A stretch of 64,000 nucleotides of DNA, from positions 910,842,001 through 910,906,000 of the forward strand of contig NW_027362761.1 in assembly GCF_046119375.1 (NCBI RefSeq), in the 5' to 3' direction. This DNA is from Phyllobates terribilis. Its lineage: Eukaryota. The notes beneath the pieces are model-generated. The model saw only the letters and a program-made list of their open reading frames with translations, made no database searches and had not been told where the DNA came from. Positions 14,145-56,647 of this stretch are shown here, in pieces (within the stretch, counting starts at the first letter, position 1; each line of letters opens with the position of its first letter). The position numbers and the translations under genes are program-made.

Positions 14145-16400
14145 TTCTATTAGTCCATCTTTACTAACCTCCACCAGGTTGGAAATTCAAAATAATTTTT
14201 ATCTGCATCTAGCTCTGAAAAAATATTTGGGCTTGTAGCAGTGTGTGGGACTTGTTCTATTAGTCCATCTATACTAACCTCCACCAGGTTGCAAATTCAA
14301 AATTATTTTTATCTGCATCTAGCTCTGAAAAAATATTTGGGCTTGGGCTTGTAGCAGTGTGTGGGACTTGTTCTATTAGTCCATCTATACTAACCTCCAC
14401 CAGGTTGCAAATTCAAAATAATTTTTATCTGCATCTAGCTCTGAAAAAATATTTGGGCTTGGGCTTGTAGCAGTGTGTGGGACTTGTTCTATTAGTCCAT
14501 CTATACTAACCTCCACCAGGTTGCAAATTCAAAATATTTTTTATCTGCATCTAGCTCTGAAAAAATATTTGGGCTTGGGCTTGTAGCAGTGTGTGGGACT
14601 TGTTCTATTAGTCCATCTATACTAACCTCCACCAGGTTGCAAATTCAAAATAATTTTTATCTGCATCTAGCTGTGAAAAAATATTTGGGCTTCGGCTTGT
14701 AGCAGTGTGTGGGACTTGTTCTATTAGTCCATCTATACTAACCTCCACCAGGTTGCAAATTCAAAATAATTTTTATCAGCATCTAGCTCTGAAAAAATAT
14801 TTGGGCTTCGGCTTGTAGCAGTGTGTGGGACTTGTTCTATTAGTCCATCTATACTAACCTCCACCAGGTTGCAAATTCAAAATAATTTTTATCTGCATCT
14901 AGCTCTGAAAAAATATTTCGGCTTGTAGCAGTGTGTGGGACTTGTTCTATTAGTCCATCTATACTAACCTCCACCAGGTTGCAAATTCAAAATAATTTTT
15001 ATCTGCATCTAGCTCTGAAAAAATATTTAGGCTTGGGCTTGTAGCAGTGTGTGGGACTTGTTCTATTAGTCCATCTATACTAACCTCCACCAGGTTGCAA
15101 ATTCAAAATAATTTTTATCTGCATCTAGCTCTGAAAAAATATTTGGGCTTCGGCTTGTAGCGGTGTGTGGGACTTGTTCAATTAGTCCATCTATACTAAC
15201 CTCCACCAGGTTGCAAATTCAAAATAATTTTTATCTGCATCTAGCTATGAATAAATATTTCGGCTTGGGCTTGTAGCAGGGTGTGGGACTTGTTCTATTA
15301 GTCCATCTATACTAACCTCCACCAGGTTGCAAATTCAAAATATTTTTTATCTGCATCTAGCTCTGAAAAAATATTTGGGCTTGGACTTGCAGCAGTGTGT
15401 GGGACTTGTTCTATTAGTCCATCTATACTAACCTCCACCAGGTTGCAAATTCAAAATAATTTTTATCTGCATCTAGCTATGAATAAATATTTGGGCTTGG
15501 GCTTGTAGCAGTGCGTGGAACTTGTTCTATTAGTCCATCTATACTAACCTCCACCAGGTTGCAAATTCAAAATAATTTTTATCTGCATCTAGCTCTAAAA
15601 AAATATTTCAGCTTGGGCTTGTAGCAGTGTGTGGGACTTGTTCTATTAGTCCATCTATACTAACCTCCACCAGGTTGCAAATTCGAAATAATTTTTATCT
15701 GCAGCTAGCTCTGAAAAAATATTTGGGCTTGGGCTTGTAGCAGTGTGTGGGACTTGTTCTATTAGTCCATCTATACTAACCTCCACCAGGTTGCAAATTC
15801 AAAATAATTTTTATCTGCATTCAGCTCTGAAAAAATATTTGGGCTTCGGCTTGTATCTCTGTGTGGGACTTGTTCTATTAGTCCATCTATACTAGCCTCC
15901 ACCAGGTTGCTAATTCAAAATAACTTTTATCTGCATCTAGCTCTGAAAAAATATTTGGCTTCGGCTTGTAGCAGTGTGTGGAACTTGTTCTTTTAGTCCA
16001 TCTATACTAACCTCCACCAGGTTGCAAATTCAAAATAATTTTTATCTGCATCTAGCTATGAATAAATATTTGGGCTTGGGCTTGTAGCAGTGCGTGGAAC
16101 TTGTTCTATTAGTCCATCTATACTAACCTCCACCAGGTTGCAAATTCAAAATAATTTTTATCTGCATCTAGCTCTAAAAAAATATTTCGGCTTGGGCTTG
16201 TAGCAGTGTGTGGGACTTGTTCTATTAGTCCATCTATACTAACCTCCACCAGGTTGCAAATTCGAAATAATTTTTATCTGCAGCTAGCTCTGAAAAAATA
16301 TTTGGGCTTGGGCTTGTAGCAGTGTGTGGGACTTGTTCTATTAGTCCATCTATACTAACCTCCACCAGGTTGCAAATTCGAAATAATTTTTAGCTGCATC
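14145..16400. repeat. Tandem array inside hAT copy 2: mostly 116-bp units, about 19 units, followed by degenerate units to ~16635
   Basis: CAGGTT at 14175, 14285, 14401, 14517, 14633 and onward. Same monomer as 881-3477 plus a 6-bp GGGCTT duplication. Confidence 0.95.
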
Positions 16401-18543
16401 TTGCCTGTAAACTAATTTTGGGCATATTAGCTGTGTGTGGTACTCATTCTATTAGGCCATCTATACTAAGTTCCACCAGCTTTCAAATTACTAATAATTT
16501 TTAGCTGCATCTTGCCTGGAAAATAATTTTGGGCATAGTAGCAGTGTGTGGTACTCATTGTATTAGGCCATCTATACCAAGCTCCACCAGCTTTGAAATT
16601 AATAATAATTTTTAGGTGCATCTAGCCCGGAAAAAAATTTTTCTTCCCAATAGTGGTAGCAATAGAAATATGGGGCGCGCTCCTGGCTAACAAAAATATA
16701 CGCTTCATAACAAAAAAGCACCAGCCTAGCGCACTGCATTAATAAGATGGCATCATCGTCTCTCCTGTCTACACCGGCTAGCATTCCTGTGCCTAAAACA
16801 CAATGCATGGGTCCGCGCTAGCCACGATGCTAAGGGGTCTAAAGCTGCTGCTAACGCTTTACCACAATTCAATTGGCAGATTTTCACAGAGCTCCTCCCC
16901 AACGCCCACCCATCAGGGAACAGTTGCCCACCCTCCCTATGGGATCTAGTGGCGAATAGTTGATGCCATTAATCAGAGCGTCAGTGGCCCCGTCGACGTG
17001 GCAAGCATACGGTAAGACATGGGAAGAGTGGACACGACTAGTAGCAGACAGACGGGTTGACCAATGTGAACAAGCCAGATTACAAGTCACAATAGAATTT
17101 CTCCACCAGCTAATGATGAGGGGCATATCAGGGGCGTCAGCGCGGCGGTGTCTGACCGGAGAAGCATTTCACTTCCAACTACTGGATAGGGGAGATATGA
17201 CAAAGAGATTCATCATCAGACAATCCATAAAAGGGTGGAAAAGGGGTCAGCCAAGTCAGGAGTGTAGACGTCCCATGCCGTGTCACTAAAACTGATTTCT
17301 CACATCCTATCCCTAACACCATTAACATGACACTCACAATTTGAAGCAACACTACTGTCTACTGCATTTGCGATCGCCTTCTTCGGGGCGCTATGCATAA
17401 GCGAATTAGTCCCTCAATCCAAAATTACCACCAGTGGAGGCTTATTACACCAGGACGTAGTCATAGCCAATAATGCAATACGTCTACGCATACGCCAATC
17501 GAAAACGGTTCCAGCGGGCAGGGGCACTTGGGTACTTCTACAACCCACAAACGGTACACTGAGTCGGGTAACAATAGTAAAAACATATATAACCATCAGA
17601 TCACAAAGTAATTTCTTCCTATCACACATTGATGGAACGCCATTTTCAAGATACCAGTTCCAAGCTATATTTAATAAATACATAACATCGGCAGGGAACC
17701 ACCCCAAAGATTACGGGACACACTCATTCCGCATAGGCGCGGCCATGGAAGCAGCAAGAGCAGGTCTGTCAGAAACGGAAGTTCAGAGGATAGGTGTAAC
17801 ATACCTGGCGGCATCCTTGCATAGTGGTCCATCTCCCACTGTGCAAGAGCGCGCACTTGATCTCCAATCCAGAATGTCTCTCTGACTTCCCTCCATGCTG
17901 TCTGTTTGCTTCTGTGTGCTGCTGCTTAAGGGCGGCGCCCGATCACTTCCTGCTTTTTGTACCTGCTGCAGGCACACCCCTTGTGCGTCCTCAGCCTATT
18001 GCTGTCTGTCACCTGGTATTTAAACCAGCTGCTCCAATTAACCCATGCCTGAGCATTGTGTTTCATTCAGTGTGGTCCTTCACTCTGAATGTGCCAGGTC
18101 CCCTTCTGTGTTCTCTTGTCTGCCTATCCTGGAGGCTGTAATTCCAGGCCTGTCTGAACACGCTTCTTGCCTGTTCGTCTCGCCTTCTAGGGGCCGCATA
18201 CCTAAACCGCTCCTGTATCTTGTCTGTCCTGTCTGAACACGCTCCTGGCCTGTTCCACCCACCTTCTAGGGGCTGCATTCCTAGACCCGCTCCTGTATCT
18301 TGCTACTGTGTCTGTTCTTGTCTGTATACTCTTCTAGCCTGTTTTCCCGTGTTTCTCTATGTCCGTACCTTTCCTTTTTCTGCAGAGTCTGAACTCGTAC
18401 CTAACTCCTGCTCGTTGTCACTGTACTCCCGTTTGTGAGTTTGTGGTCCACTCGCTACTTCACTGCAAGTACCTGTTGGTATCTGGTTCTGCCATTCCCT
18501 TCCTGTCTGTTCCGTGTGAACAGAGCCCTGTCCCCCCTGCTTT

Positions 18544-19045
18544 GCCTTTGCTCACCGCTCCGGCGGTTCTAGCCTGCTCTGCCTTTGCTCACCGCTCCGG
18601 CGGTTCTAGCCTGCTCTGCCTTTGCTCACCGCTCTGGCGGTTCTAGCCTGCTCTGCCTTTGCTCACCGCTCCGGCGGTTCAAGCCTGCTCTGCCTTTGCT
18701 CACTGCTCCGGCGGTTCTAGCCTGCTCTGCCTTTGCTCACCGCTCCGGCGGTTCTAGCCTGCTCTGCCTTTGCTCACCGCTCCGGCGGTTCTAGCCTGAT
18801 CTGCCTTTGCTCACCGCTCCGGCGGTTCTAGCCTGCTCTGCCTTTGCTCACCGCTCCGGCGGTTCTAGCCTGCTCTGCCTTTGCTCACCGCTCCGGCGGT
18901 TCTAGCCTGCTCTGCCTTTGCTCACCGCTCCGGCGGTTCTAGCCTGCTCTGCCTTTGCTCACCGCACCGGCGGTTCTAGCCTGCTCTGCCTTTGCTCACC
19001 CCTCCGGCGGTTCTAGCCTGCTCTGCCTTTGCTCACCGCTCCGGC
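18544..19045. repeat. 37-bp GC-rich minisatellite in the 5' LTR (14 unit starts)
   Basis: GCCTTTGCTCACCGCTCCGGCGGTTCTAGCCTGCTCT recurs from 18544 to 19025 at a 37-bp period. Confidence 0.95.
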
Positions 19046-19976
19046 AGTCTCGCTCTGCTCTGACTCCTTTGCTCACTGCTCCGGCAGTCTCGCTCTGCTC
19101 TGACTCCTTTGCTCACTGCCCCGGCAGTCTCGCTCTGCTCTGACTCCTTGCTCACTGCTCCGGCAGTCTCGCTCAGCTCTGACCCTTTGCTCACCGCTCC
19201 AGGCGGCCTTGTCCTGCTCTACTCTTGCTCACCGCTCCAGGCGGCCTTGTCCTGCTCTACTCTTGCTCACTACTCCAGGCGGCCTCATCCTGCTCTACTC
19301 TTGCTCACCGCTCCAGGCAGCCTCGTCCTGCTCTACTCTTGCTCACCGCTCCAGGCGGTCACGTCCTGCCCTGCTCTCGCTCACCTCTCTGGGCGGCCTC
19401 ACTCTGCTGTGTTTGTCCGCCACATCTGTGGTTCTGTTCCTGAGTCCCAGTGTGTGCTGGGTCCTATCCCGCCTGTGTTCCTACCTGCTAGTGCCTCCCT
19501 GTCAGCACTCTAGCCGTGCTTGCCTGTACCCCCCTGCCTGCATACCCGCCTGCCTGCATACCAGTCGTGCCTGCCTATACCCACCAGTCTGTGTGCCAGC
19601 CTAACCAGTCTGTTCCTGTATTCCCCTGTGTGGGTCAACAGTTGTGTCCGGGGTCTGTCCTGGAGTAGCACCTGGTCCCTCTGCTCGGTTCCTCCTTGGT
19701 GCACTGGCGTCGTATGCCGTTGTGCGACCCTGGTCGGATCGGGTGAATACCTAGTTACGCCCCTCCACGCATTCACTCTCCGGCACAGTCCAGTGGAATC
19801 ACACGCACACGCCGCTCAGCCCGCGCATGTGCATTACAGCATGCTCAGGCCATGGTTCCCGTTGAGCCCCACGGCCTTCGCTCTCTGAGACGTTTTCCAG
19901 CGAATACGTGCATTAAAAATAAATAAATAATTTTTTTTCTCTAGCTAAGTTCCAGGCGAATTACGCACCCGTCCAG

Positions 19977-20549
19977 ATGGATCTATCAGCTCTCGTTCCT
20001 GCGGATCCGCCACAGTACTATGGGGATCCAAGACAGAGTCGTGCATTTGTGGAGCAATGCATGCTACACTTCAAGTTCTACCCTCTATGTTTTCCCACAG
20101 ATCGGGTTAAGGTGGGATTCATGATGTCTTACCTAGCGGGTGATGCCTTGAATTGGATCATCCCCCTATGGGACGCACAGGATCCTATCGTCCTGGACAT
20201 AATGGCCTTCCTGGTGGCCTTTCTAATGGTCTTCGATAATCCTAACCCGGAGGCTCCTGCTGAAGCTTCACTTCCCAATATCCCGGAGCAGCCCCGATGG
20301 GTAATGTGTGTGGGTAGCGCAATAGTCCTCCAGCCCAATGAGACTACTGCCCACCCAGAATCCTCACAGGGTGACTACGCTCTCCGGAATACTTCTCCCA
20401 ACCTCAAGAGGCAGTCCAGACGTGCTAGACGTAGAGGCAAGCCGTCACGCCAGGGTCTGTCCTCCCTGAGACCTCCTGACCCCAACCTTGAAGTCCCTAC
20501 TGAAGCTTCATCTCCCTTTTTCCCGGAGAAGCCCCAATGGGTAATGTGA
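19977..20549 (+). CDS. Gag capsid-like ORF (sushi/RTL1/LDOC1-like), 190 aa
   Basis: PPQYYGDPRQSRAFVEQC...KVGFMMSYLAGDALNW...FLVAFLMVFDNP resembles the Ty3/Gypsy sushi-clade capsid and the Gag N-terminus of 30116-33481. ATG lies 138 bp downstream of the LTR. Confidence 0.75.
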   Translation: MDLSALVPADPPQYYGDPRQSRAFVEQCMLHFKFYPLCFPTDRVKVGFMMSYLAGDALNWIIPLWDAQDPIVLDIMAFLVAFLMVFDNPNPEAPAEASLPNIPEQPRWVMCVGSAIVLQPNETTAHPESSQGDYALRNTSPNLKRQSRRARRRGKPSRQGLSSLRPPDPNLEVPTEASSPFFPEKPQWVM

Positions 20550-20659
20550 GTGGGTAGTGCACCAGTTCTCCTGCCCGAAGAGACTGCTGCCCACCCAGAA
20601 TCCACACCAGAGGACCCCCTGTTGCCTCCTGAATCCCCCGGGATACACTTGATGACAAT

Positions 20660-21520
20660 TGGAGAGAGACTTCCCTATACTCTGCACCTGATACCTCGCC
20701 CGCTTCGTCCAGTGAGTCCGACCTAGTGTACTCCGAAGCAGAGGTTACCCATGAGTCTCTTCACCCCTCCGACCTGGCGGAGGACCTCCAGCTGTCTCCT
20801 GAGCCCTTCGGGGTGCTACCTGGCAGCGAAAGGACAGAGACTCTCCTATACTCTGTACCTGATACCTTGCTCGCTTCGTCCAGTGAGTCCAACCTAGTGT
20901 ACTCCGAAGCAGAGGTTACTCCCGAGTCTCTACACCCCTCCGTCCAGGCGGAGGACCTCCAGTTGTCTCCAGAACCCTTCGGGGTGCCACCTGGTGGTGA
21001 ATGGACAGAGACTTTCCTATATCCTGCAGCTGATACCTCGCTCGCTTCGCCTAGTGAGTCTAGCCTAGTGTACTCCAAAGCAGAGGTTATTCTTGAGTCT
21101 CTACACCCCTCCGCCAGGCGGAGGACCTCCAGTTGTCTCCAGAACCCTTCGGGGTGCCACCTGGTGGTGAATGGACAGAGACTTTCCTATACTCGGCACC
21201 CGATACCTCGCATGCTTCGTCCAGTGAGTCCGACCTAGTGTACTCTGAAGCAGATGTTTTCCCCAAGCCTCTGCACTCTTCTGACCCGGCGGAGGACCTC
21301 CAGTTGTTTCCTGAATCCTCCAGGGTACCACCAGATAACAAAGAGACAGTGACTTTTCCTCACCCTGTACCTGATAACCCGTCTATTTCTTCCTGTGAGC
21401 TTGACAAGATGTACCTCGAAGCAGAGATTACCCCCAAGTCTCTGCTCCCCTCCAACCCGGTGGAGGACTTCCAGTTGTCTCCTGTACCCTCTGGGGTGCC
21501 ACCTGAAAATATATGGAGAG
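20660..21520 (+). repeat. Five ~171-bp units (57-codon acidic Ser/Pro-rich repeat) in the gag-only element
   Basis: The GAGTCC-anchored unit recurs at 20714, 20885, 21056, 21226 and 21397 (periods 171, 171, 170, 171). Confidence 0.9.
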
Positions 21521-22480
21521 AGACTTCCTTGTGTGCTGTTCCTGGTACTCCACCCATTTCGACTGTTGCTAAGGGTGGCTGGATGGGAGGTAGCATCCTA
21601 GCTACCCAGAGGAGACCAGTTTTTCCAGTGGACAGTGGAAGTGATCTCCTTGAAGTGAAGGATTGGCCCTCGAATTCCCTGCGGAACATTTTGGCAGGCC
21701 TGAAGAAGAGGGGGCGTAAGGGGGGGTACTGTAACATACCTGGCGGCGTCCTTGCATAGTGGTCCATCTCCCACTGTGCAAGAGCGCGCACTTGATCTCC
21801 AATCCAGAATGTCTCTCTGACTTCCCTCCATGCTGTCTGTTTGCTTCTGTGTGCTGCTGCTTAAGGGCGGCGCCCGATCACTTCCTGCTTTTTGTACCTG
21901 CTGCAGGCACACCCCTTGTGCGTCCTCAGCCTATTGCTGTCTGTCACCTGGCATTTAAACCAGCTGCTCCAATTAACCCATGCCTGAGCATTGTGTTTCA
22001 TTCAGTGTGGTCCTTCACTCTGAATGTGCCAGGTCCCCTTCTGTGTTCTCTTGTCTGCCTATCCTGGAGGCTGTATTTCCAGGCCTGTCTGAACACGCTC
22101 CTTGCCTGTTCGTCTCGCCTTCTAGGGGCCGCATACCTAGACCCGCTCCTGTATCTTGTCTGTCCTCTCTGAACACGCTCCTGGCCTGTTCCACCCGCCT
22201 TTGAGGGGCTGCATTCCTAGACCCGCTCCTGTATCTTGCTACTGTGTCTGTTCTTGTCTGTATACTCTTCTAGCCTGTTTTCCCGTGTTTCTCTATGTCC
22301 GTACCTTTCCTTTTTCTGCAGAGTCTGAACTCGTACCTAACTCCTGCTCGTTGTCACTGTACTCCCGTTTGTGAGTTTGTGGTCCACTCGCTACTTCACT
22401 GCAAGTACCCTGTTGGTATCTGGTTCTGCCTTTCCCTTCCTGTCTGTTCCGTGTGAACAGAGCCCTGTCCCCCCTGCTCT

Positions 22481-23050
22481 GCCTTGCTCACCGCTCCGGC
22501 GGTTCTAGCCTGCTCTGCCTTTGCTCACCGCTCCGGCGGTTCTAGCCTGCTCTGCCTTTGCTCACCGCTCCGGCGGTTCTAGCCTGCTCTGCCTTTGCTC
22601 ACCGCTCCGGCGGTTCTAGCCTGCTCTGCCTTTGCTCACCGCTCCGGCGGTTCTAGCCTGCTCTGCCTTTGCTCACCGCTCCGGCGGTTCTAGCCTGCTC
22701 TGCCTTTGCTCACCGCTCCGGCGGTTCTAGCCTGCTCTGCCTTTGCTCACCGCTCCGGCGGTTCTAGCCTGCTCTGCCTTTGCTCACCGCTCCGGTGGTT
22801 CTATCCTGCTCTGCCTTTGCTCACCGCTCCGGCGGTTCTAGCCTGCTCTGCCTCTGCTCACCGCTCCGGCGGTTCTAGCCTGCTCTGCCTTTGCTCACCG
22901 CTCCGGCGGTTCTAGCCTGCTCTGCCTTTGCAAGCTCCGGCGGTTCTAGCCTGCTCTGCCTTTGCTCACCGCTCCGGCGGTTCTAGCCTGCTCTACCTTT
23001 GCTCACCGCTCCGGCGGTTCTAGCCTGCTCTGCCTTTGCTCACCGCTACG
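22481..23050. repeat. 37-bp minisatellite in the 3' LTR (16 unit starts)
   Basis: Same unit as 18544-19045, with one unit 1 bp short and one 3 bp short. Confidence 0.93.
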
Positions 23051-23849
23051 GCAGTCTTGCTCTGCTCTGACTCCTTTGCTCACTGCCCCGGCAGTCTCGC
23101 TCTGCTCTGACTCCTTGCTCACTGCTCCGGCAGTCTCGCTCAGCTCTGACCCTTTGCTCACCGCTCCAGGCGGCCTTGTCCTGCTCTACTCTTGCTCACT
23201 GCTCCAGGCGGTCTCGTCCTGCTCTACTCTTGCTCACCGCTCCAGGCGGCCTCGTCCTGCTCTACTCTTGCTCACCGCTCCAGGCGGTCACGTCCTGCCC
23301 TGCTCTCGCTCACCTCTCTGGGCGGCCTCACTCTGCTGTGTTTGTCTGCCACATCTGTGGTTCTGTTCCTGAGTCCCAGTGTGTACTGGGTCCTATCCCG
23401 CCTGTGTTCCTACCCGCTAGTGCCTCCCTGGCAGCACTCTAGCCGTGCTTGCCTGTACCCCCCTGCCTAAATACCCGCCTGCCTGCATACCAGTCGTGCC
23501 TGCCTATACCCACCAGTCTGTGTGCCAGCCTAACCAGTCTCTTCCTGTATTCCCCTGTGTGGGTCAACAGCCGTGTCCGGGGTCTGTCCTGGAGTAGCAC
23601 CTGGTCCCTCTGCTCGGTTCCTCCTTGGTGCACTAGCGTCGTATGCCGTCGTGCGACCCTGGTCGGATCGGGTGAATACCTAGTTGCGCCCCTCCAGGCA
23701 TTCACTCTCCGGCACGGTCCAGTGGAATCACACGCACACGCCGCTCAGCCCGGGCGTGTGCATTACAATAGGGAGATGGCGATCCACGTATTTGGCGAGA
23801 TACATAAGACCGGACTTGTTATCCTAACGTGGTTTGTTTCTTTTACAGG

Positions 23850-24477
23850 TGACACTAAGCCAACAGTGTGGGTGATAGGCCACTCGCATATATATTGGGC
23901 AGAAAAAAGGACGAAAGTCCACCCAGGCGGGAGGAAATTAGAGTTTCATAACACATATTTCAACTGGAGAGGTATTAGAGGCCTGCTATGGCCACAGGTA
24001 CTAATGGAGGTAATCAAGGTAGGGAGAGAGGCAAGAGGTCCGGTCATCTTAGTTATACAGGCCCGGGGAAACGACCTAGGTCATCACAAGAGCGCATAAC
24101 TAATGGCAATAATGAAACTAGACACTGAGCGCTTCAGAGAATTTTTCACAAAACTAACTAAGGTATGGTCAGAGATTGTGCCGATAGCGGTATGGCAAGG
24201 TGCGCGAGACATCACGGCCATCGAACGGACAAGGCGGGTAATAAATATTCGGATGGCAAAATTTAGAAGAGACAGAGGCGGTGTAGTGATACAACACCGA
24301 CAACTGGAAGGAGATAAAGCAGGCCTCATACAGCCCGACGGTGTTCACTTAATGGATATTGGACTGGACATATCCCTGTCAGGACTCCAGGATGGAGTGA
24401 AACAAGCGTTAAGAGTGATGGATGGGGGTCAGAGTCCTGCATATGAGTACGCAGGATCCTCCATGGCCTGGAAATAG
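23850..24477 (+). pseudogene. SGNH/GDSL-like hydrolase ORF of the Ngaro element (in-frame TAA at 24097-24099)
   Basis: Blocks VWVIGHS (I), GIRG (II), ARGND (III) and PDGVHL (V) occur in the expected order. Confidence 0.85.
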
Positions 24478-26315
24478 AAAGGACATGTTGGAAAGTTACA
24501 CTTGTTGGCCAACTTGCCGGTGTGGAGACCCAGGGCATGCTGCAACAAGCTGAATTATTTTAGAAATAAAATGCCTTTCTAATGGAATGAGTATAAAGAG
24601 TTAATAAAGCTGTGACCGATCCTCACCCATCCAGTTGTAAGAGTTACATTATTGTATTGTCAAGGAAAGGGGGGTGGTAGGGGGGCTGAGCGTCTGGGTT
24701 TGGTTGGGGGTCCCCACAGTCTGCCTAGGCTAGATGCATTTAAAAGTTCTTATTAGATACACAGGCGGTGCAGCTTGCTTCGCAGCTGGACTACTACGCC
24801 CAAAGTATTGCCTAGATGCAGTTAAAAATTCTATGCTGACTAGCAGACACTGAAGCTTTGGAGCTGACCTCTGAGTAAACAGCTCTTCAGACTCAACCAT
24901 CTGTGTTACCCCAAGCCATAGTGTATGTAGTTTCTTACAGTTAAAAGGGGGGGGGGAGCGACCCAACCCACCTGGAATTAACGATGCCAACGTCACGTAA
25001 AACACAGCAAGGGGACTCCAAAAAGAGTCTCCATTTTTTCCAAAAATTGTGGCACAGACACCACTTAAGTGGCATCAATTGCCCCAGAGTTGCTTAAAAC
25101 GGTTGGTGAGGTGATTTTATCAAATCCTCAAGCTTTTAGTCTCCCCAGGATGACACAGGGGTAGAAAAGTCTTTGTGGATCCATGATTTGTTCATCTTTA
25201 TGAACGTGAGTCTGTCTACATTCTCAGTGGGCAGCCACGTGCGCTTATCTGTCAGCACACCACCAGCAGCGCTGAACACACGTTCAGAGAGAACACTGGC
25301 TGCAGGGCATGACAAGATCTCCAAGGCGTGAGTGGCGAGCTCCGGCCATTTTTCCAGATTGGAAGCCCAAAATGAGCAAGGGTCCAGTTACACAGTCATA
25401 GCTTCGATGTTCACTTGGAAATACTCCTGTACCATCCTCTCTAGGCGTTGACTATGTGTCAGACTTCTTGTCTCCTGTGGCCTTGCAAAGGATGGTCTAA
25501 AAAAGTGGTGAAACGATTCCACAAAATTGTTGTTACCAGCAGATACTGTGTTACTGTTACGGTTTGAGTGATAAAGACTCGACAGTCCCACGGTTTGCAA
25601 GTTAGAACTGTGAGATTCACTACGTGCACCACTGGTGTTTTGTGGAAAAGCACATGTAAGATTCTGCAACAGCCTCTGCAGATACTCCTGCATGCGTGAA
25701 TCCCTTTCTATGGCAGGAATTATTTCGACAAATTTACTTTTGTACCGTGGATCTAAGAGTGTGGCAACCCAGTAGTCTGGATTACTTTGAATTCTGACAA
25801 TCCGATGGTCATGTTGCAGGTAGTGCAGCAAGAAGGCACTCATGTGTCTTGCGCATCCAGGAGGACCAAGTCCTTGTTGTGTTGGTAGCGAGGTAAGAAT
25901 CATGCTTCCTTCCTCTGCCCTCTCCCCCCAACCTCTCACAACAGAAATGTGATCAAGGTCTCCCTCATCTGATGAGTCTTACATGCCCATCGCCAGTTCG
26001 TCCTCCACTTCTTCCTCGGCTCCTGCACCTTCCTCAACAGTTTGGCTGCTACCATGCGCCCTGGTTAATCCCTCTCCCCCACCCTCCCATGCCTGCCGCC
26101 TTGGTGCTGCTGACCGTCTGGACCTTGGAGATGTTATCCCTTCCGCATACGACTCCTCCTCTACTTCCTCCACCTCCTCTTGTCCCACCACCTGACTCTG
26201 AATTCTGTTTAACGTGTGCTCCAGCATGTAAATCACAAGAATAGTCATGCTGATAATGGCATCGTCGTCAGCACTAAACATCTTCGTCGCCATTTCAAAA
26301 CTGTGCAGAAGGGTG

Positions 26316-27502
26316 TGTGGCGCCCCTGAGGGTTCAGTCGCCACAGAGGTACTGCATCTCACCCAGAGGTGTGGTATCTCACCCTCAGGTAAGGAAGGAG
26401 TATGGCTCGGGACCCTAACACCTGCATCCAACACATACCCGCAGTGGGGGTAGGGCGAGATTGCTCCTAAGGGAGAGCACAGTCCCAGGTCCCTAGCTGG
26501 TGGGAGGGTCCTATGTAGTGGGTGTGGATGGAGAAAGCAGCTTAGGGGAGCTCATGACAGTGAGAGTATAAATAGGAAGCCATCTTAGAAAGAGCAAGCC
26601 ATTCAGAGGAGGAGAAGTGACAGGAGCAGAGGCTCTGCATGAGCTCTGCTCCGGAGGCGGGCCTAGCCTGGGAGGCCCAGGACTGAAGGAGAGAAGAGAG
26701 GAGTGGGAGCAGGAAGGCTCCAGGAACCGAAGGGACCCTAGGGGTATGGGCCCTGCAGAAGGCCACCCGTACGCCCGCTGCTACCAGGAGGTAGAGGGGT
26801 CAGGCCAGATAAGGGGAACCGGTCCCTCAACTAGCGGAGAAACAGCAAGGCTCAACTAGAAACCGGAGGCTGCAGCATTTCATTTACTGCAGGCCAAAGT
26901 CCACACCAGTATCACTAAGAAGGTAGCCACATAGGACCCAGGGGACGGAACACACGTCGCCCGCCAAGGCCCGAGGATACCGGATAGAAGTGTCACTGGG
27001 TGTGAGGTGCAGGGAGAAGGCCAGAGAAAGGACACACAGAAGGGGGTCCTGCTAAGTACTCCGGCGCTATCTGGGGGTGGACTGAGCCCCTCACTGAGTA
27101 CGCACAGCACGACGGGGGAGATTGCTCTGGTACCTGTAATCTGGACTGCAACAACTATGAGTAAAGATCTTGGGACTGCATCACACGGACTCTGTGTTCA
27201 TTACTGACTCCCTGCACTACAACCACCATCATCCACCCACACTGCCCTGAAGCTACACTCTTCCTGTGGAGAGTAATAATACCATTGCTGCAAAACCACC
27301 AGCTTCAGAGGACTGTTCCACAGCGGCGTCCCCTTTGGCCGCACTCCACAGGTGGCGTAGTCGGACATTATAAAACCCATATATACAAATTACCCTTGGA
27401 TTGACCACCCTGGATCACGGACCGGGTCGCCGCCACAGTGACTACAACCCCCAGCGTCTACCGGCCCGGCTCCGGGTACCCCACGGCCCAGGGGGCGCGT
27501 CA
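26316..27502 (+). mobile_element. Solo LTR (Gypsy type, TGTGGCG...GCGTCA), no TSD
   Basis: Interrupts the transposase between AGGGTG and CATAGG. Homologous to LTR 62569-63782. Followed by 4 extra nt, ACTT. Confidence 0.88.
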
Positions 27503-28976
27503 ACTTCATAGGTCCCTGATCTGAGACCACTCCTGCAGCGTGATTTGCCCCACCTCTGGATCTCGTTGGCCCAGGCTATACGTCAGAACGTATTGCACCA
27601 GGGCTTGTCGGTGCTGCCACAGTCGCTGCAACATGTGCAGAGTTGAATTCCACCGTGTCGGCACATCGCATTTCAGCCGGTGAAGTGGCAGGCCCAACGA
27701 CACACAGCGACCGTGCCCTCTGCAGAAGGCCATCTAGTCCGGGATAGTGGGCTAAAAATTGCTGGACAACCAGGTTCAACACGTGAGCCATACAAGGCAC
27801 GTGTGTGACATTGCTTCGGCGAAGGGCCACACCCAGGTTTGCAGCATTGTCGCACACGGCGTTCCCTGGTTGCAGGTCCAGTGGAGACAACCATTCATGA
27901 AACTGGGTCTCCAGAGCTGACCACAACTTCTCAGCTGTGTGACTCACATTTCCCAGACATTTCAAAGTAAACACCGCCTGATGCCGTTGAGCCCAGCTGC
28001 CAGCATAGTAAGGAGGTGTGCAGGATTCCTTCTGCGCAGTTAGAAAGCGGGTGGCATTACCAGACAGGCTTTGGGTGCAGGTGGAGGACCGAGAGGAGGT
28101 TGAGGAGGCAGAAGCAGTGGAGGAACTTCTAGATAAAGAGGATTGACGTACAACTCGTGGGGACGGCAAGACTTGGACAGCAGCCCATTGTCCTGCTGTC
28201 ACCATAGTTACCCAGTGCCCAGTCAGTGACATGTAACGCCCCTGTCCATGCTTACTCGCCCAAGTGTCTGTGGTGAAATGCACCCTGTCACACAAAGAGT
28301 TTCTCAAAGAAGTGGTGATGTTGTGTGTGACATGCTGGTGGACCGCAGGCACACCTTTCTTTGAGAAGTAGTGCCGACTGGGCATCTGGTACTGGGGCAC
28401 TGTGACGGACATAAGGTCTCGAAAATCCTCTGTGTCCACCAGGCGGAAAGGCAGCATTTCTGTAGCCAACAGCTTGCAGATGGGGAAATTCAACCTCATA
28501 GCTTTGTCATGGCTAGGAGGAAATGGTCTTTTACTTGTCCACATCTGAGGGACCGAGGGCTGGCTGTTGTGCTTAGACGGTGTTGAGTAGGGTGTCGCCG
28601 GCAAACTTTCTGGTCTGTGAGGAAGATGCAGGCGGAAAAGTTAGGTTGTCTTGATACAAAGGTGGTGCTCTCGATGTCGGAGAGCGCTCAACACCAGCTG
28701 GTGTTTCCACTTCCAAATGAAATGATGATCTGCCAATCACACTGGTTGTTACGGGTAAAGAGGTGGCAGGTCTGCGTCCAAAAACATGTGTGACTGCTGT
28801 CCCCCCAGTCACAGAGGATGAAGAGGCCTCGGATGCACAAGATGGGGCAGACGGTGGTTGGCACGGCCCGCTAGGCAGCATTGTAGCACAGTGAGCTTCC
28901 CACTGCAACTTATGCTTCATATCCATGTGACGGTTCATGCATGAAGTACTCAAACTATGGATTTTTTGGCCTCTAC

Positions 28977-31900
28977 TGTTATGATCTGCTACAGGGACTA
29001 AGGAAAGGCAGGAGATCTGTCCCTACAATAGAACTAAACTAGATCCCTACGATGTAACGGGGAACCTGATCCTGTGATCAGACCCGCTAAAGTCCTCGGC
29101 TAGTCTGTACGAAGACCTATAGATGTGAGGGAGGGATCCCTACAAGAACTAGGGACTGGGATAAGTTGGACACCTCCTAGCAGAAATAGTAGCAGTCAAA
29201 GACAAACACACAACAAAAAGCATAGAGGTCAGAAGACCTAGCAAAACTAACAGAGAACGGCAACAGAGCACCAAGCTAGCTCAAGAGTAGTAAATACAAT
29301 GAAGTCCAGCAAGGCCAGGAGGGCGGAGCCGGATGAAATAGGCAAAAATGTTCATGTGACCAGCAAACTAAAAAAAACCTAACAGGAGAGTTCTAACAGT
29401 ACCCCCTCTTCTAAGAGGATCCTCCGGATCCCCTAGGCCCAGGCTTACCAGGAAACCTCCTGTGAAACGCTCTGACAAGTCTGGAAGCAGAAACATCACC
29501 CACCCTCACCCATGAGTTATCCTCAGGTCCGAAACCCTTCCAAGCGACGAGATACTGCAAACTCCCTCTATACCGTCTAGAATTTAGGATGCGGGAAATT
29601 TCATATTCCCCGTCCTCCACCACCGGAGGAACAGTGGCAAAGGCGTCACCATCCGACACATCAGCTTTTTTCAACAGAGAAACATGAAACACCGGGTTAA
29701 TCTTCCAGGACATAGGAACCTCCAACCTAACAGCAGATTGGTTAACTATCTGAAGCACCTTAAAGGGCCCTATGAACTTGGGACCCAATTTTTTAGAAGG
29801 AATCCTCAATCGCAGATTCTTAGAGGACAACCAAACCATGTCACCAACAGCAAACAAAACCTCTTGCCGTTTCCTATCAAAGTACCTCTTAGATTTTTTG
29901 TTAGCCTCCTGAAGATTACCACGCACATCCGTCCAAACTCTCTCCAAATCACCGGAAAAACTCTCCTCCTCAGGCACAGCCGAAACCAATTTGGAGAATG
30001 ACCCGAAAGACGGATGTCTCCCAGAACAACAAAAAAAAGGCGAACACCCAGCAGAAGAGGATGTATGGTTGTTAAGAGCAAATTCAGCAAGTGGCAGAAA
30101 CTCAGACCACCCCTCTTAATTGTCTGCCACAAAACAACGCAAGAACTGCTCAACATCCAGGTTCTTCCTTTCTGTCTGGCCATTAGACTCAGGATGATAT
30201 CCGGATGAAAACGACAAATGAACTCCCAACCTGTCACAAAAGGCACGCCAAAAACGAGCCACGAACTGAGGTCCCCTATCAGAAACAATGTCAGTAGGAA
30301 CACCATGTAGTCTGACAATTTCCTTGACAAAGGCCTTAGCGAGTGTCTTAGCGCAAGGCAGTTTGATGAAGGGAACCATGTGACACATCTTGCTAAAACG
30401 GTCCACGACCACCCAGATGACCGTGAAACCTTCAGAGGGGGGAAGGTCAGTAATAAAGTCCATAGCCAGATGTGTCCAAGGTGCACTAGGAACCTCCAGA
30501 GGGCAAAACAACCCCGCAGCAGGAGCATGCGAAGACTTGGATCTAGCACACACAGTACATTGACGCACCCACTTAATGACTTCCTTCTGCCATCCAGGCC
30601 ACCAAAAACTGCGACCCACAAGTCTCTTGGTCTCAGAAATTCCTGGATGACCTGCCAACCGAGACTCATGACACTCAACAAACAAATCTCTCCTAAAGGT
30701 CCTAGGCACAAACAACCTCCCATGGGGAGTGTTAGATGGGGCATTCTCCTGAGCTTTAAGAATCTCATCCTCCAAAACGGAGTCCAAAGCAGCAATCACA
30801 ACACCTTCTTGTAAAATGCTCTCCTCTTCCTCCTCAGCACTGACCATGGGAGAAAAGCTGCGAGACAAAGCATCCGCTTTAACATTCTTGGTACCCGGGA
30901 TGTAAGTAACGGAAAAATTAAACCGCGAGAAAAAAAGTGCCCACCTAGCCTGACGGGCATTCAAGCGCTTGGCAGCATCAAGATAGATCAGATTTTTATG
31001 ATCAGTGAAAACCTGAATGGGAAATTCAGCACCTTCCAAGAGGTGACGCCAGTGTTCAAATGCGAGTTTAATCGCCAGCAATTCCCGATTACCAATATCG
31101 TAATTAAGTTCAGTCTCAGAAATTTTTTTTGAAAAAAAGGCACAGGGATGTACTCCATCCTTGTTTTCCTGAGACAACACCGCACCGACCCCCACCGAAG
31201 AAGCATCAACCTCAACCAAAAACGGCTTAGTCACATCAGGCTGCATAAGGATGGGGGCAGAGCTGAACCTCTCCTTTAGAAACACAAAAGCTTCAATGGC
31301 CTCAGAAGTCCACTGAACCGCATTAGCACCTTTCCTGGTGAGATCGGTCAGCGGTTTGACAATAATAGAAATTTTTTTTATGAATTTTCTGTAATAATTG
31401 GCGAAACCCAAAAACCTCTGTATCGATTTCAAACCAATAGGCCTAGGCCATTCCTGCACAGCTTGGACTTTAACCGGGTCCATCTCAAAACCTTCACTGG
31501 AGATAATGTAGCCCAAAAAACTAATTCTCTGTACAGCGAACTCACATTTCTCCAGCTTAGCAAAAAGCGAATTGTCCATTAATAACTGTAATACCTCACG
31601 TACGCTCCGCCAATGAGACTCCAGATCAGGCGAATAAATCAGAATGTCATCCAAATACACAACCACATTTTTGCCGATTAAAGGTCTAAGGATGTCATTA
31701 ATAAGATTCTGAAAAAATGCTGGAGCATTGGTAAGAGCAAAAGGCATCACCAGATTCTCAAAATGACCCACAGGAGTGTTAAAAGCAGTCTTCCATTCAT
31801 CACCCTCCTTCATGCGCAACAAATTGTATGCCCCCTGGAGATCAATTTTAGAGAACCACTTGGCCCCCACTAACTGGTTAAATAAATCAGGAATCAATGG

Positions 31901-33965
31901 CAGTGGGTAAGGATTGCGTACAGTAATTTTATTAATCTCACGAAAGTCCAGACAAGGACGTAAACCGCCATCTTTTTTTTTTACAAAAAAAAATCCAACA
32001 GCCACAGGAGACTTGGAAGGCCTAATGTGACCGGCGGCCAAGCTTGTCTGTATGTATTCCTCCAAAGCCTTTCTCTCAGGAATAGTAAGATTAAATAAAC
32101 GACTTTTAGGAAGAATCGCTCCAGGGACAAATTCAATGGTACAATCATAGTCTCTATGGGGAGGCAAAATTTGTGACTCCTCCTCAGAAAAAACTCTCCA
32201 AAAATCCTGAATAGGTACAGGTAATTCCCCTTTATCCACAGCAGCAATGCGCCCGTTACAACACTTGTCATAACACTTAGGGCTCCAGGACTTAATTTCA
32301 TTGGTAGACCAATCCAGTACAGGATTGTGCAATTTTAACCAGGGTAACCCCAATATTACTGGAGAAGGCAAATTATCCAATACCACCAAATCCAAATTCT
32401 CTTGATGAATACCATTAATAGTGAGGGGAAATTCACAGACCTTATGAGTAACACTCTTCAAGGGAGAGCCATCAACAGAAACCACAGCAATAGGGGATGA
32501 CAAAGTTTTAGGTTCTAATCTAAGTTTTTCCAAGAATCCCCCATCAATCACATTCAGAGTAGAACCACAATCCACAAATACCCGAAGTTCAATTAATTCA
32601 TCCTGAGCAGCAGTAGTGGCAGATAGGAATACTCCCTTAGAATTTAAACAGGCTATACGTGCATGACTGACCATTTTTTTTTCTTTCTTCATACGAAGCA
32701 CACAGTTCTTAATAAAATGACCAGAATTTCCGCAATAGAAGCACAAGCCTTCAGAAAGCCTGCGGTCTTTTTCCTGAGAGTGGGGTGCCATCGCCCCAAT
32801 CTCCATCGGCTCTCCATTGTCAGCACAGACCCTCTCAGGACTCGGAGCTGACATAGCAGAGGATTTGCTCTCATTAACCCTTGCACGCAGTCTCCTGTCC
32901 ACCCGTATAGCTAATTGCATTGCCTCCTGCAAGTTTCCAGGTGTGGGATAAGCAATCAGTAAATCCTTAACCCTTTCACCTAGCCCTGCAAGAAACAAGC
33001 TTTTCAAAGCTGAATCGTTCCACCCCACCTGGGCAGACCACCGACGGAAGTGAGAACAATATTTTTCCACATTACCTGATCCCTGCCTCAGATGTCTCAA
33101 TTCAGACTCAGCAGATGAGACACGATCAGGATCATCGTGCAACAAACCCAAAGCAGAAAAAAAACTATCCACTGATCTAAAGCACGGATCACTAGGTTGG
33201 AGAGAGAAGGCCCATCCCTGAGGATCTTTGCGCAAAAGTGACATTATGAACCCTATGCGCTGTGATTCATCACCAGAGGATCCGGGTCTCAAACGAAAAT
33301 ACAATAAACAAGCATTTTTAAAAGAAAAAAAATCTTGTTGTTCGCCAAAAAATAAATCAGGCAGACGTACCTTTCGTTCCACAAAATGTGCTCCAGAACA
33401 GCTACTCACGTGTTGTTGGAGCTTGGCCACCTCCAGAGAGAGTCCCTGCAAGCGTTGAGCCAAATCTTGAACCGAGACCATGATGGAAAACTGGAGGTCT
33501 TTCCTTAGAGAAAATTTTTTTTTTCTTTTAGGGCTGGACTTACTGTTATGATCTGCTACAGGGACTAAGGAAAGGCAGGAGATCTGTCCCTACAATAGAA
33601 CTAAACTAGATCCCTACGATGTAACGGGGAACCTGATCCTGTGATCAGACCCGCTAAAGTCCTCGGCTAGTCTGTACGAAGACCTATAGATGTGAGGGAG
33701 GGATCCCTACAAGAACTAGGGACTGGGATAAGTTGGACACCTCCTAGCAGAAATAGTAGCAGTCAAAGACAAACACACAACAAAAAGCATAGAGGTCAGA
33801 AGACCTAGCAAAACTAACAGAGAACGGCAACAGAGCACCAAGCTAGCTCAAGAGTAGTAAATACAATGAAGTCCAGCAAGGCCAGGAGGGCGGAGCCGGA
33901 TGAAATAGGCAAAAATGGTCATGTGACCAGCAAACTAAAAAAAACCTAACAGGAGAGTTCTAACA
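28977..33965 (-). mobile_element. Full-length Ty3/Gypsy chromovirus (sushi clade), very recent insertion
   Basis: 422-bp LTRs at 28977-29398 and 33544-33965 with one mismatch seen. 5-bp TSD TCTAC. PPT GAAGAGGGGG next to the 3' LTR. Confidence 0.98.
29411..33481 (-). pseudogene. Single-frame gag-pol (CA, CCHC, protease, RT, RNase H, integrase, chromodomain) with one in-frame TAA at 30116-30118
   Basis: CFYCGNSGHFIKNC, VFVDCG, YLDDILI, VDASSVGVGAVL, HHCC plus D-D-E integrase, YEISRIL...YLVAWKGFGPEDNSW chromodomain. The frame continues in register past the stop (EGWSEFLPLAEFALNN). Confidence 0.95.
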
Positions 33966-34193: not shown

Positions 34194-35334
34194 TGTGACG
34201 CCCAGCTGCGCTTGGTATCACAGATCCTAGAAGAGTGCATTGATGGAATCCTAAACAAGAGGCCCCCATAAACATTCACACATCTCCACCTTCCACCTCA
34301 GACCAGCAGAGGGAGCCCGTTAGGGATATAAATAGGGAAAGTGGAGCTAGGCAGTTCAGTTCCTCTGAAGAGTTCCTGCAGTAGAGAAGCCTAAGAGATG
34401 TCAGTCTGCAGTGGAGCTCAGTCTAGTCTAGAGAACTCAGTTAATAGTTCAGCAGTGGAGCTTGAGGCTCCTGTTAGCTAGATTCAGGGAGCCCAGTTAG
34501 AGCTTAAGGTGTGCCGGCGCCATAAGATCGGTGATGCGCGGCAAGTTGCCGTTAGTGTGTATAGCCTAGTGAGGGCCCGAGTAGGCCGAAGGCGAGTGGA
34601 GAGTTAGTACATAGTGGACAGAGGAGCTTAACCAGCTCACCCCGAAGCATTTACCGGACACTGGATCCGAGCTTATCTCTATGACCCAGTAAGGCATAAC
34701 CAGAATCCCTGGAGAACTACAAGTCCCAGGATCGCTAAGGTGCTGATACGTAACAGAGTCAGGAGACGCTTAGGCCCCGCATACTGGGAGCGTGAACTCC
34801 AAGACAAGGCCCTACCACAAGGTCAGCCAGCGCAGGACAGAGACAAAGTTAAGCCTAGCTCCAGGCAGGTCAGAAACTTACTACGCAGAGGCAAGAAACA
34901 GGAGGCCCTACACCCGCTCATTGGGGGGGGAATCCTGATATGCACCCTTCACCCTACAGTGCTCCGGGATGTGCCTGAATTTCCACCAGTAAAAGGTACT
35001 GAAGTGACTACCGTGTCCATTCCGGTTCTTGCTCTGACCCAGCTGGGTCTCGCCTGTCCTGCATTCCCCCTGCATACGCTTTTCTGAGGCCTAGCTCCAC
35101 CTGTGGGGAGCTATACCATCGAGCTGCCTTATCACCGGCCTCAGTGGACTACTGCAGCGCTGGTGCTTCTCACCAGATACCACAGGTGGCGTCACGAACT
35201 CTTATAAAATTAACAATTATCCACCCTTTTAAAGACTGACCCCAGGGTACGGGCCCGGGAGCCGACCACCGTGACATCCCAAAGGCCAGGCAAAGGCCCG
35301 GGTACCGAGTCATTCCCATCCCCTGGGCTAGTCA
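34194..35334 (+). mobile_element. Solo LTR (Gypsy type, TGTGAC...AGTCA)
   Basis: 4-bp TSD CATC (34190-34193 / 35335-35338). Interrupts the hAT transposase. Confidence 0.88.
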
Positions 35335-36829
35335 CATCCTCCTCCACCTCCTCTGCTGACCTCATCGACTGGCTGACTGTGGGTTGACAGTAAGTGGGAT
35401 CTCCAACCTCGTCATCATCACCCTGTGTGTTCTCACACCCGTCGTCCTCAGAGCCAACCTCTTCCTGCCCTGACCGAACAGTCAAGTTGTCGCTCCAATC
35501 AGGTATTTGAGTCTCATCATCGTCTTCATCATTGTCTCCACCAACAGGAGTTACAGTTTGGGAACGAGGGTCTACATTATGCTCAGAACCTTCTTCATCT
35601 GGTCCTGGATCCGACTCATAAAGATTCTGGGCATCAGTGCAGATCATTTGCTCGTCTGGATTAACAGAAGCTCTGGAGCAGACCTCCGTTTCCCAGGCTA
35701 TAGTATGAGTAAACAGCTGTGCAGACTCAACCATCTGTATTACCCCATACTCAGACGGGCAGCTTGAGACTTGGGAGCTGTGAGGAAGCAAGTGCGATTG
35801 GGGTGACACCTCTGAGGACTGGAGTATTTGTGATGTTGAAGTTGAGGTGGAGGAGAGCCCACTTGAAGGAGCACTTGATATACGTTGAAGCACCTGCTGT
35901 TTTTGTGCCTCATCTGGAATTTGTAGCGATGGGCGTGTCCGTAAGAAAGGGATCGTATCACATTGTCCACGAAAAGAAGTAGACATCTTAGTTTGGCTGG
36001 AAGATGGTCTTTCTTCTGCAGATGTTACTCCCCCCCACCGCGGGGGGGCTCGACCCACCAGCGGACAGGCACCAGTATTGAGAGAGGGGGGCTGGCCGTC
36101 ATGGTCCACCGCAGCTCTGGCACAAACCCGGCGACACGGAGGTGGCACGGGCAGGAACGGACTGGCCGCGTCGGCTTCGCACTTTTTTGGTTTTAGAAGG
36201 GCATGACATGCCTATATCTGTGTCTCCCCCTCCTTTTACTCCTCCACCTCTTTTCTTTTCGCATGACTATATGTACTTGTCACTTTTCCATGTGTTAGTT
36301 GTGTCTTCTGAGAAGTTTGTCAGCTTTTGGACACCTTTGAAGGTGTTTTCTATGTGTTTCTATGTGTTTTTGTTTGCCTGCCATTGGTTTTAATGGTGTT
36401 CGACAGTGTTCGACGAAAAGTTCGGCGAACATAAAGTTTTCGACGAACCGAACCGAACTCGAGCACTACGGGGGTGGCTCAACACTACTTATGATACATG
36501 AACATGTGTCTAGGTGTCTAGTACCCTAAACCTAACCGTAACCCTAGCACACATTAAAAAGCTAACCCTAACAATGACACTACTAAACACAAAACTCTCC
36601 TAAATACTAGCATTACCCATCACAAGACTTAGCATCAAATGCCCTGTGTAAAACTAAAAATGGAGCGGGAATTGAGTTCTTCACTTTGATACGGCTGTGC
36701 ATAAAAGAGGCTGAGAAGAAGGGACATGTTGCTGGGACAGTGGAGTGATGTATTGCATGAGGAGGCTGTGTATAGAAGGGTCTGAGGAGCGATATACTAC
36801 AGGAGATGACTGTAAACAGAAGTGTCTGA

Positions 36830-47010: not shown

Positions 47011-47038
47011 TACTGATTTGTTTATTATGTCTCCCAAT

Positions 47039-56535: not shown

Positions 56536-56647
56536 AGCCAATAGTTTTGGCCTAATACCACAGTTTGGCCACTCAGCTCTGCTCGGTTACCATCCATTGT
56601 TTTTTTGTGCAAGCAACTCCAGAGTTGTGAATTAGTTAACCACCAAA

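Follow-up and report, generated by a model that had tools for sequence, protein, structure and literature searches.

How can a long terminal repeat (LTR) retrotransposon that encodes no enzymes spread to thousands of copies, and what keeps its one long open reading frame (ORF) open? This question is raised by an element in a 64,000-nucleotide stretch of the Phyllobates terribilis genome (contig NW_027362761.1, positions 910,842,001 to 910,906,000 of the forward strand; this whole stretch is hereafter called the window, and coordinates refer to it). The element (17795-23767, + strand, 5,973 bp) is one broken member of a young and large family without enzymes. The protein predicted from its ORF keeps only the N-terminal lobe (N-lobe) of a capsid, followed by an acidic repeat array; the C-terminal lobe (C-lobe) and the zinc knuckle are absent. 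In the reading that we favour, and to which we give about an even chance, the element is a half-capsid passenger copied by a co-resident chromovirus, and its protein likely docks on the capsid of this helper, favouring the element's own RNA.

A preliminary description of this locus had proposed a self-priming element without pol, flanked by target-site duplications (TSDs), with two LTRs of about 2 kb and a 1.9-kb interior. The LTRs and the ATAGG TSDs were confirmed, and the interior measures 1,891 bp. Both LTRs are bounded by TGTAAC...ATTACA, and they differ by 46 mismatches in 2,001 aligned bases (2.3%). The features of the element, including its primer-binding site (PBS) and polypurine tract (PPT), are as follows.

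17790-17794, + strand: left TSD, ATAGG, 5 bp
17795-19838, + strand: 5′ LTR (2,044 bp), with a 79-bp duplication at 18149-18314, a 37-bp tandem array at 18536-19359 and a 16-bp array at 19521-19574
18018-18025, + strand: TATA-like box, 5′ of the putative transcription start
18047-18056, + strand: self-primer, 10 nt complementary to the PBS; putative 5′ end of the RNA
19663-19765, + strand: U5 block, about 80% like the U5 found in an older autonomous chromovirus branch
19839-19855, + strand: PBS (19841-19850) and putative ancestral gag start codon (19852)
19852-19926, + strand: short upstream ORF, 24 codons here, with an A/T tract at its end
19977-20276, + strand: capsid N-lobe, approximately residues 8-88, plus the first turn of the C-lobe; without the N-terminal coiled-coil region
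20241-20367, + strand: short repeat, copy 1, 127 nt
20406-20456, + strand: Arg/Lys-rich patch, from the translation; present also in the natural copies examined
20481-20607, + strand: short repeat, copy 2, 127 nt, containing a premature stop (20547-20549)
20609-21563, + strand: acidic array of 171-nt (57-residue) Glu/Asp/Ser/Pro units, 5 whole and 1 partial
21689-21729, + strand: last codons of the ancestral pol, overlapping the PPT
21730-23767, + strand: 3′ LTR, 2,038 bp
23768-23772, + strand: right TSD, ATAGG, 5 bp
16960-17794, + strand: host element cut by the insertion, with a tyrosine-recombinase gene; resumes after 23772

The PBS is the exact complement of the self-primer, and a shuffled PBS found a match of this kind in 3 of 2,000 control trials. 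The TATA-like sequence TATTTAAA lies about 22 nt ahead of the self-primer; a TATTTA/TATATA-type box was found at the same distance in the sampled copies of the family, and transcription would start downstream of it. The 37-bp array, which recurs at 22473-23288 in the 3′ LTR, would lie within the transcript. In the interior, a capsid-like frame (19923-20549; Pfam DUF4939, E 8e-7) runs to the premature stop. This stop falls in the second of two short repeats (81% alike, spaced 240 nt), in agreement with the duplication of about 130 bp described previously. The five 171-nt units reported before were also recovered by a unit profile, together with the partial sixth. TRF counted 4.9 copies of the unit at 20661-21505, and the spacings read 171/170/171/171 or 171/171/170/171, depending on the register chosen. 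A tail frame (21097-21759) then crosses the PPT and ends 30 nt inside the 3′ LTR. Besides the stop, the lesions in this copy are frameshifts near 20645 and 21113, and the G-run of its PPT is unlike those of two open copies compared with it. The short upstream ORF, as we read it, is the surviving start of the ancestral gag.

The family was counted by searching the 10.6-Gb genome for the exact 26-nt LTR-PBS junction, which gave 3,067 exact matches (control, 0) and thus at least 3,067 copies. The main sample consisted of 60 stretches from the first 62 listed junction matches, two tandem partners being skipped. This sample was blind to coding sequence; all of it lies within 117 Mb of a single contig, and the exact 26-mer favours copies with an exact junction. 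Two of the 60 copies were excluded from codon counts, 4 had no 3′ LTR, and 11 without both LTR ends were excluded from dating. As many as 56 of the 60 have two LTRs, with interiors of 1,090-2,869 bp; deletions or nested insertions account for the other 4 and for 5 odd LTR pairs. The TSD was perfect in 38 of 49 copies and had one mismatch in 7, and the median LTR divergence within copies was 1.3%. Another 20 stretches, anchored on the LTR, comprised 13 solo LTRs (11 with a perfect TSD), 3 whole elements, 3 3′ LTRs and 1 truncated copy. When the Pol of the candidate helper described below was searched by tblastn, no match at E≤1 was found in any of the 56 interiors. A complement of at least 10 nt to the self-primer is present in 51 of 57 copies. 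The distance from self-primer to PBS is about 1.7 kb in the window copy and 0.9-2.4 kb across copies, because the 37-bp LTR array sits inside the putative transcript; a first-strand cDNA of 0.9-2.4 kb would be unusual. Head-to-tail doubles sharing the middle LTR were also seen in this family, as they were in the RT-less family described below.

The ORF was followed across the natural copies. A copy was called open when its frame began at the start codon and reached at least the last 25 codons before the 3′ LTR. By this criterion, 27 of the 56 sampled copies were open, with unbroken frames of about 520-990 residues, and 15 of the 30 closest copies were open as well (586-910 residues). Among 150 N-lobe matches, a list biased to intact N-lobes, 96 lay within frames of at least 550 residues. 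Because natural copies read through, the ancestral protein of about 600 residues that had been proposed is borne out. The proteins of open copies have a pI of 4.2-4.5 and a mass of 68-80 kDa. LTR divergence is also lower in open than in broken copies (medians of 1.0% and 1.7%, p 0.04), which makes the open copies the younger group. The tail that had been described as running through the PPT into the LTR is real in the window copy but is not a fixed trait: among 27 open copies, the frame terminates 5 nt inside the LTR in 9, continues far into it in 17 and ends before it in 1. The upstream ORF (19-34 codons) is present in 53 of 55 copies and shares the frame of the main ORF in 1 of 55.

The units themselves vary freely in number (1-11 unit anchors per copy). 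Most of the length variation among copies consists of whole 171-nt units, and the length classes present in at least 2 copies are all in frame, bar one pair with independent breaks. This pattern agrees with an explanation that treats the ORF as a remnant without function: by chance, the frame would have been intact in a few source copies, the unit would keep the frame by chance (as one unit length in three does), and the family is young. Variation by whole units preserves the frame automatically, and the youth of the family, the awkward leader, an omega near neutral and the rarity even of singleton stops (see below) point the same way. To weigh this explanation, alleles shared between copies, which were likely inherited through transposing lineages, were set against singletons, which likely represent mostly later decay. 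Over the initial 615 nt of the ORF, 11 frameshifts were single and none was shared. In both LTR stretches of the same copies, 71 shared and 102 single frame-breaking indels were counted (p 0.007), the LTR counts being inflated by alignment fragments; the last 330 nt of the LTR alone gave 18 shared and 38 single indels (p 0.03). The unit had been noted to be a multiple of 3 and open in one frame, and both properties hold across the family: 257 of 265 unit spacings were divisible by 3, and a stop was present in the acidic frame of 3 of 255 units, compared with 255 and 247 in the other two frames. No stop was found among 270 alleles seen in at least 3 copies or units, and one stop was common to two copies. 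A chance remnant does not readily account for the lack of shared stops or frameshifts despite a divergence of as much as 32% in N-lobe residues between subfamilies and roughly 20% between unit classes, nor for the many shared frame-breaking indels in the LTRs of the same copies, nor for the conservative nature of shared N-lobe changes shown below. We regard a functionless remnant as quite improbable.

Selection was also examined at the level of residues. For shared changes, omega was 0.74 over codons 1-205 and 0.85 in the units, compared with approximately 1.0 for singletons; the difference was not significant at most thresholds, and the expectation of a strong dN/dS below 1 was not upheld. 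In the N-lobe, conserved columns were hit by 6 of 37 shared changes but by 25 of 63 singletons (p 0.011), and shared changes fitted a profile of 104 homologues better than singletons did (p 0.002). The N-lobe keeps 22 of 26 conserved capsid columns, and its profile score of 146 compares with a homologue median of 175 and a 10th percentile of 146. At 30 of its 88 positions, a second residue occurs in at least 5 copies. These data bear on whether the frame may be kept open for the sake of the RNA, with translation preventing nonsense-mediated decay or placing the RNA at helper assembly sites while the protein does little. Selection that is strong against frameshifts but weak on residues, particularly in the repeats, is what this would predict, as are the free number of units and the variable C-terminus; moreover, translating Ty1 RNA is described as nucleating assembly sites (PMC3945221). 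On the other hand, translation alone would not require shared N-lobe changes to avoid conserved capsid positions, nor would it be expected to hold the N-lobe score within the homologue range when third positions have become saturated relative to the helper. We view such an RNA-centred role as possible though not probable. The acidic part is likely a disordered spacer, the length and sequence of which matter little so long as the frame stays open.

What, then, does the ORF encode? In the ORF, Pfam found only DUF4939 (residues 11-86); Retrotrans_gag and Ty3_capsid, which were found in 16 of 17 and 15 of 17 relatives, respectively, were not found in it. At E≤0.001, 1,027 library proteins matched, and the best 150 matches stop near residue 90-110, save two; in a search of 50% clusters, no protein among the best 150 matches extended beyond residue 143. 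The relatives checked are whole Gags, and the closest named ones are from frogs, with Ranitomeya first. The alignment showed that homology stops at an Asp-Pro motif and the helix start just after it; a profile of these relatives places the start of the solved PEG10 C-lobe at this point. Whole Gags have a long N-terminal region, which is missing here as well. After the N-lobe come the two short repeats flanking the basic patch, the 57-residue units, and a tail with the last pol codons. The capsid homology of sushi type recognised in the preliminary description therefore stands, but it extends to the N-lobe only and not to a whole Gag. The Arg/Lys-rich patch is possibly an RNA-binding or nuclear-import signal; it showed no match to the helper nucleocapsid. 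A degenerate chromodomain was considered for the tail and rejected, as there was no Pfam match and only the last 14 or so pol codons match.

A model of the first 100 residues built on 105 sequences gave a capsid-lobe fold with a predicted local distance difference test (pLDDT) score of 88, whereas the single-sequence fold was unusable (pLDDT 50). With VIA-align, the model matched dArc1 (Z 9.3, root-mean-square deviation 5.0, 85 residues aligned), the Arc N-lobe (Z 8.1; 3.3, 74) and the Ty3 N-lobe (Z 7.8; 2.6, 74). Because Z values of 7.8-9.3 are middling for a helical bundle and do not distinguish N- from C-lobes, the assignment as an N-lobe is based on sequence. Foldseek returned nothing at E≤0.001, its top rows being nearly all Arc, PNMA2 or Ty1 capsid lobes, and a PDB search by single sequence gave nothing useful. 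Homologue searches by shared words, limited to proteins of near length, found nothing for the N-lobe, the remaining protein or the first 190 residues, and Atlas matches for the repeats were all under 0.9. When the N-lobe and the helper capsid were modelled as a complex, the median score was 0.33 against a mark of 0.34.

Since the C-lobe and nucleocapsid are missing, the product is unlikely to build a shell alone, and the idea that the element supplies its own modified capsid found no support. In lacking both parts next to a sushi-type N-lobe, it resembles RTL8 and LDOC1, and other RTL/SIRH members are described as carrying long unstructured extensions (PMC11684626; PMC10516033). The preliminary description had pointed to the likeness to RTL/SIRH genes; it holds for the architecture, to which the comparison was confined. 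The same likeness brings in a second role that had been raised, that of a capsid decoy which, like RTL8 or Ty1 p22, poisons helper particles and is kept by host selection or by competition between elements. The half-capsid architecture shared with RTL8 and LDOC1 (PMC11684626; PMC10516033), a bulky tail of pI 4.2-4.5 that might be expected to disturb a lattice, and the second residues at 30 of 88 N-lobe positions would all suit a decoy. Yet the family depends on helper particles and has reached thousands of copies, selection acts on transposing lineages and not on a fixed locus, and open copies are younger than broken ones, as decay after insertion predicts. Selection in cis is better matched by a passenger function than by a decoy, which is quite improbable in our estimate. 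The fixed host genes RTL8 and LDOC1 have reported dN/dS values of 0.09 and 0.06, compared with an omega of about 0.7 for this mobile element. RTL/SIRH genes are in addition low-copy and without LTRs, whereas this family comprises at least 3,067 copies flanked by LTRs.

A genome search with a frog Gag led to a self-priming chromovirus family with reverse transcriptase (RT) that is resident in the same genome. The LTR end, PBS and first 13 or so gag codons are 76% alike between the element and this autonomous family, and over 41-47 nt the pol end and PPT are 78-91% identical to autonomous and RT-less relatives. The cis-signals in common are thus the PBS junction, the self-priming geometry, the PPT and the 5-bp TSD. 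The helper Gag matched the 56 interiors only over helper residues of about 50-176, with a median identity of 48%, and third positions of the N-lobe were saturated relative to the helper (7 of 24 alike). The element is therefore an old offshoot and not a one-off deletion derivative. Its U5 block (103 nt) is common to an older autonomous branch, in which it was found in 20 of 20 copies (score 100, vs a shuffled maximum of 28). A further 14 younger autonomous copies were picked for a long open pol frame, and 6 of them were not parsed. The 8 that were have 5-bp TSDs, a 10-nt self-primer and LTR divergences of 0.6-2.2%, a range which overlaps the age of the half-capsid family. One candidate-helper copy is inserted, in the opposite direction, inside the LTR of a half-capsid copy; the helper was therefore active after that copy inserted. 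When the profile of the 171-nt unit was searched against 54 relative loci and the window chromovirus, the best E was 1.4. From these data we infer descent from the chromovirus lineage, in which the whole stretch separating the N-lobe from the last pol codons would have been lost and the repeats gained from elsewhere. On all three points that the preliminary description had put forward as decisive, the outcome spoke for it: the ORF is continuous across copies, the units are multiples of 3, and the repeats were not found in the autonomous relatives.

The element was also compared with Tf1/sushi chromoviruses in general. Both have LTRs of the TG...CA type, a 5-bp TSD, a G-rich PPT and a PBS complementary to the putative 5′ end of the RNA, and the DUF4939-type N-lobe of the element is 40-50% identical to frog and fish Gags. 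Compared with autonomous members, the element is without protease, RT, RNase H, integrase, chromodomain, capsid C-lobe and zinc knuckle. The self-priming layout itself is described for Tf1-type elements (PMC4600332).

The window also contains, at 29411-33589 (- strand), a near-intact autonomous sushi-type chromovirus with a whole Gag including CCHC, protease, RT, integrase and chromodomain. It has LTRs of about 0.42 kb, sits in a hAT-like element, and its leader has an A-tract followed by a T-tract. It was considered as the parent of the half-capsid element and rejected (26% N-lobe identity, different LTR and PBS). A second passenger family, very young and of the same chromovirus lineage as the candidate helper, was listed at about 140 places. 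It has one long frame with a whole Gag, protease, and integrase parts with SH3 and chromodomain, RT and RNase H being missing in frame. This RT-less family falls into two size classes (interiors of about 2,255 and about 2,740 bp), many copies have LTRs 99-100% alike, and the self-priming layout is kept, with about 0.8 kb between self-primer and PBS.

Since selection acts on transposing lineages, the ORF must benefit the RNA that encodes it. In the favoured scheme of a docking passenger, the RNA would start at the self-primer and then be primed by its own 5′ end, as in Tf1, and helper RT and integrase would read the shared termini, PBS and PPT, so that copying occurs in trans. The nascent half-capsid protein would dock on an assembling helper capsid close to its own RNA, and docking would favour packaging of the encoding RNA into helper particles. 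RTL8, which has an N-lobe only, is described as binding the PEG10 N-lobe and entering PEG10 particles (PMC11684626); with this precedent and the kept N-lobe fold, co-translational docking is favoured over its rivals. It has also been described that translating and packaged Ty1 RNA molecules form one pool (PMC3945221), and that cis action of LTR-element proteins is unsettled (PMC13558583). In a stronger version, the element would be a satellite with a capsid-remodelling adaptor, its N-lobe co-assembling with the helper shell and its acidic tail steering packaging to its own RNA, in parallel with phage satellites that use helper capsids; we rate this version as unlikely. If the adaptor reading were true, half-capsid genes like RTL8 and LDOC1 could arise ready-made on mobile parasites before being tamed by a host.

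Several observations weigh against a docking passenger. RTL8 is described as reducing particle yield rather than increasing it (PMC11684626), and Ty1 Gag as being without cis-preference (PMC3945221). The U5 block was not seen in the 14 younger autonomous copies; because young autonomous copies share just short signals and no U5 block, this family is no more than a candidate helper. A leader of about 1.8 kb precedes the main ATG; in the window copy it contains six upstream ATGs, and the short upstream ORF is in good start context. The C-terminus varies between open copies. Overall amino-acid constraint is weak (omega 0.7-0.9), just one of six thresholds gave a synonymous excess with p<0.05, and dN/dS between unit classes was alike in all three frames (0.79, 0.56, 0.82). 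Singleton stops, too, were below neutral expectation (5 of 384, p 0.002); the stop test alone is thus not clean. Recombination among copies is heavy (1,492 of 4,186 site pairs incompatible), so that shared alleles cannot be counted as independent and the p values are approximate. Finally, the evidence for selection is drawn from the one 117-Mb stretch of one contig and from copies with the exact 26-mer.

How the RNA is processed was approached through its signals. None of 57 LTRs contained AATAAA or ATTAAA in its downstream part. A donor-like GTRAGT was present in 48 of 52 copies and an acceptor-like tract in 40 of 55, both counted without a control; a spliced mRNA is on this basis a mere guess. 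Four contig sets, three of which we guess to be RNA and one of uncertain kind, cover 19380-21760 and contain no splice-like joint, RNA and DNA being indistinguishable in them.

Elements of comparable layout are known. The frog element Xretpos of Xenopus laevis reportedly encodes a leucine zipper and a CCHC motif, and the ORF described here has neither. Xretpos and 1A11 are likewise described as frog LTR elements without pol; by description, to which this comparison is confined, they have 15-50 ORF-bearing copies, and the Gag-like protein of 1A11 is 71 kDa, compared with 68-80 kDa in the open copies here (PMC4585706). TR-GAG of plants (PMC4350172) and wheat RLG_Quinta (PMC11302176) and RLG_Sabrina/WHAM (PMC9744471) are described as non-autonomous elements with a single gag-derived ORF. 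They likewise have two LTRs, a PBS, a PPT, no pol and many recent copies, and are described as active through a partner sharing termini, PBS and PPT. They differ in that their ORF is described as coding for a GAG precursor, whereas the element here encodes half a capsid with acidic repeats; TR-GAG is also under 4 kb and from plants, compared with a self-priming element of 6 kb in a vertebrate host. Zebrafish Bhikhari (Bik-1, Bik-2) and chicken ENS-1/ERNI are likewise young vertebrate families without pol, with an ORF of about 600 residues and many solo LTRs (PMC12067270). In contrast, they are described as derived from retroviruses, with a CA domain, a coiled coil and a Gly-rich patch; their copies with both LTRs number in the tens, compared with thousands here, and an action in development has been demonstrated (PMC12067270).

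No description of a mobile half-capsid family was found in the literature searched, which did not include Repbase, Dfam or supplements. Gag-only LTR elements, and half-capsids as fixed mammalian genes, were known already; within this scope, a half-capsid on a mobile family was not. Carried by a still-spreading family under selection, it offers a natural system for studying the cis action of LTR-element proteins, one that could show how passengers enter the particles of a helper and whether half-capsid genes have their origin in the tools of parasites. The half-capsid, autonomous and RT-less families are directly comparable because all reside in the same genome.

The element was inserted into another mobile element, which spans 16960-24477 in the window and which we take to be DIRS-like. 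Its tyrosine-recombinase gene gave Phage_integrase (E 3e-5) and Phage_int_SAM_1 (E 0.002), both below the Pfam cut-off, and the reading frame picks up again past the right TSD. In the genome, a search with PF03732 (Retrotrans_gag) placed all of the best 150 matches on small unplaced contigs and none on large ones; these small contigs may hold foreign DNA. Elsewhere in the window, what appears to be one 110-116-bp satellite forms three arrays of about 20 copies each (882-3477, in the opposite direction; 14145-16640; 54347-56530), and a 394-bp array lies at 47035-48110. Transposase-like frames at 25388-28640, 35210-36211, 56636-60308 and 61112-61717 are presumably several hAT-like pieces and one Tc1/mariner-like frame.

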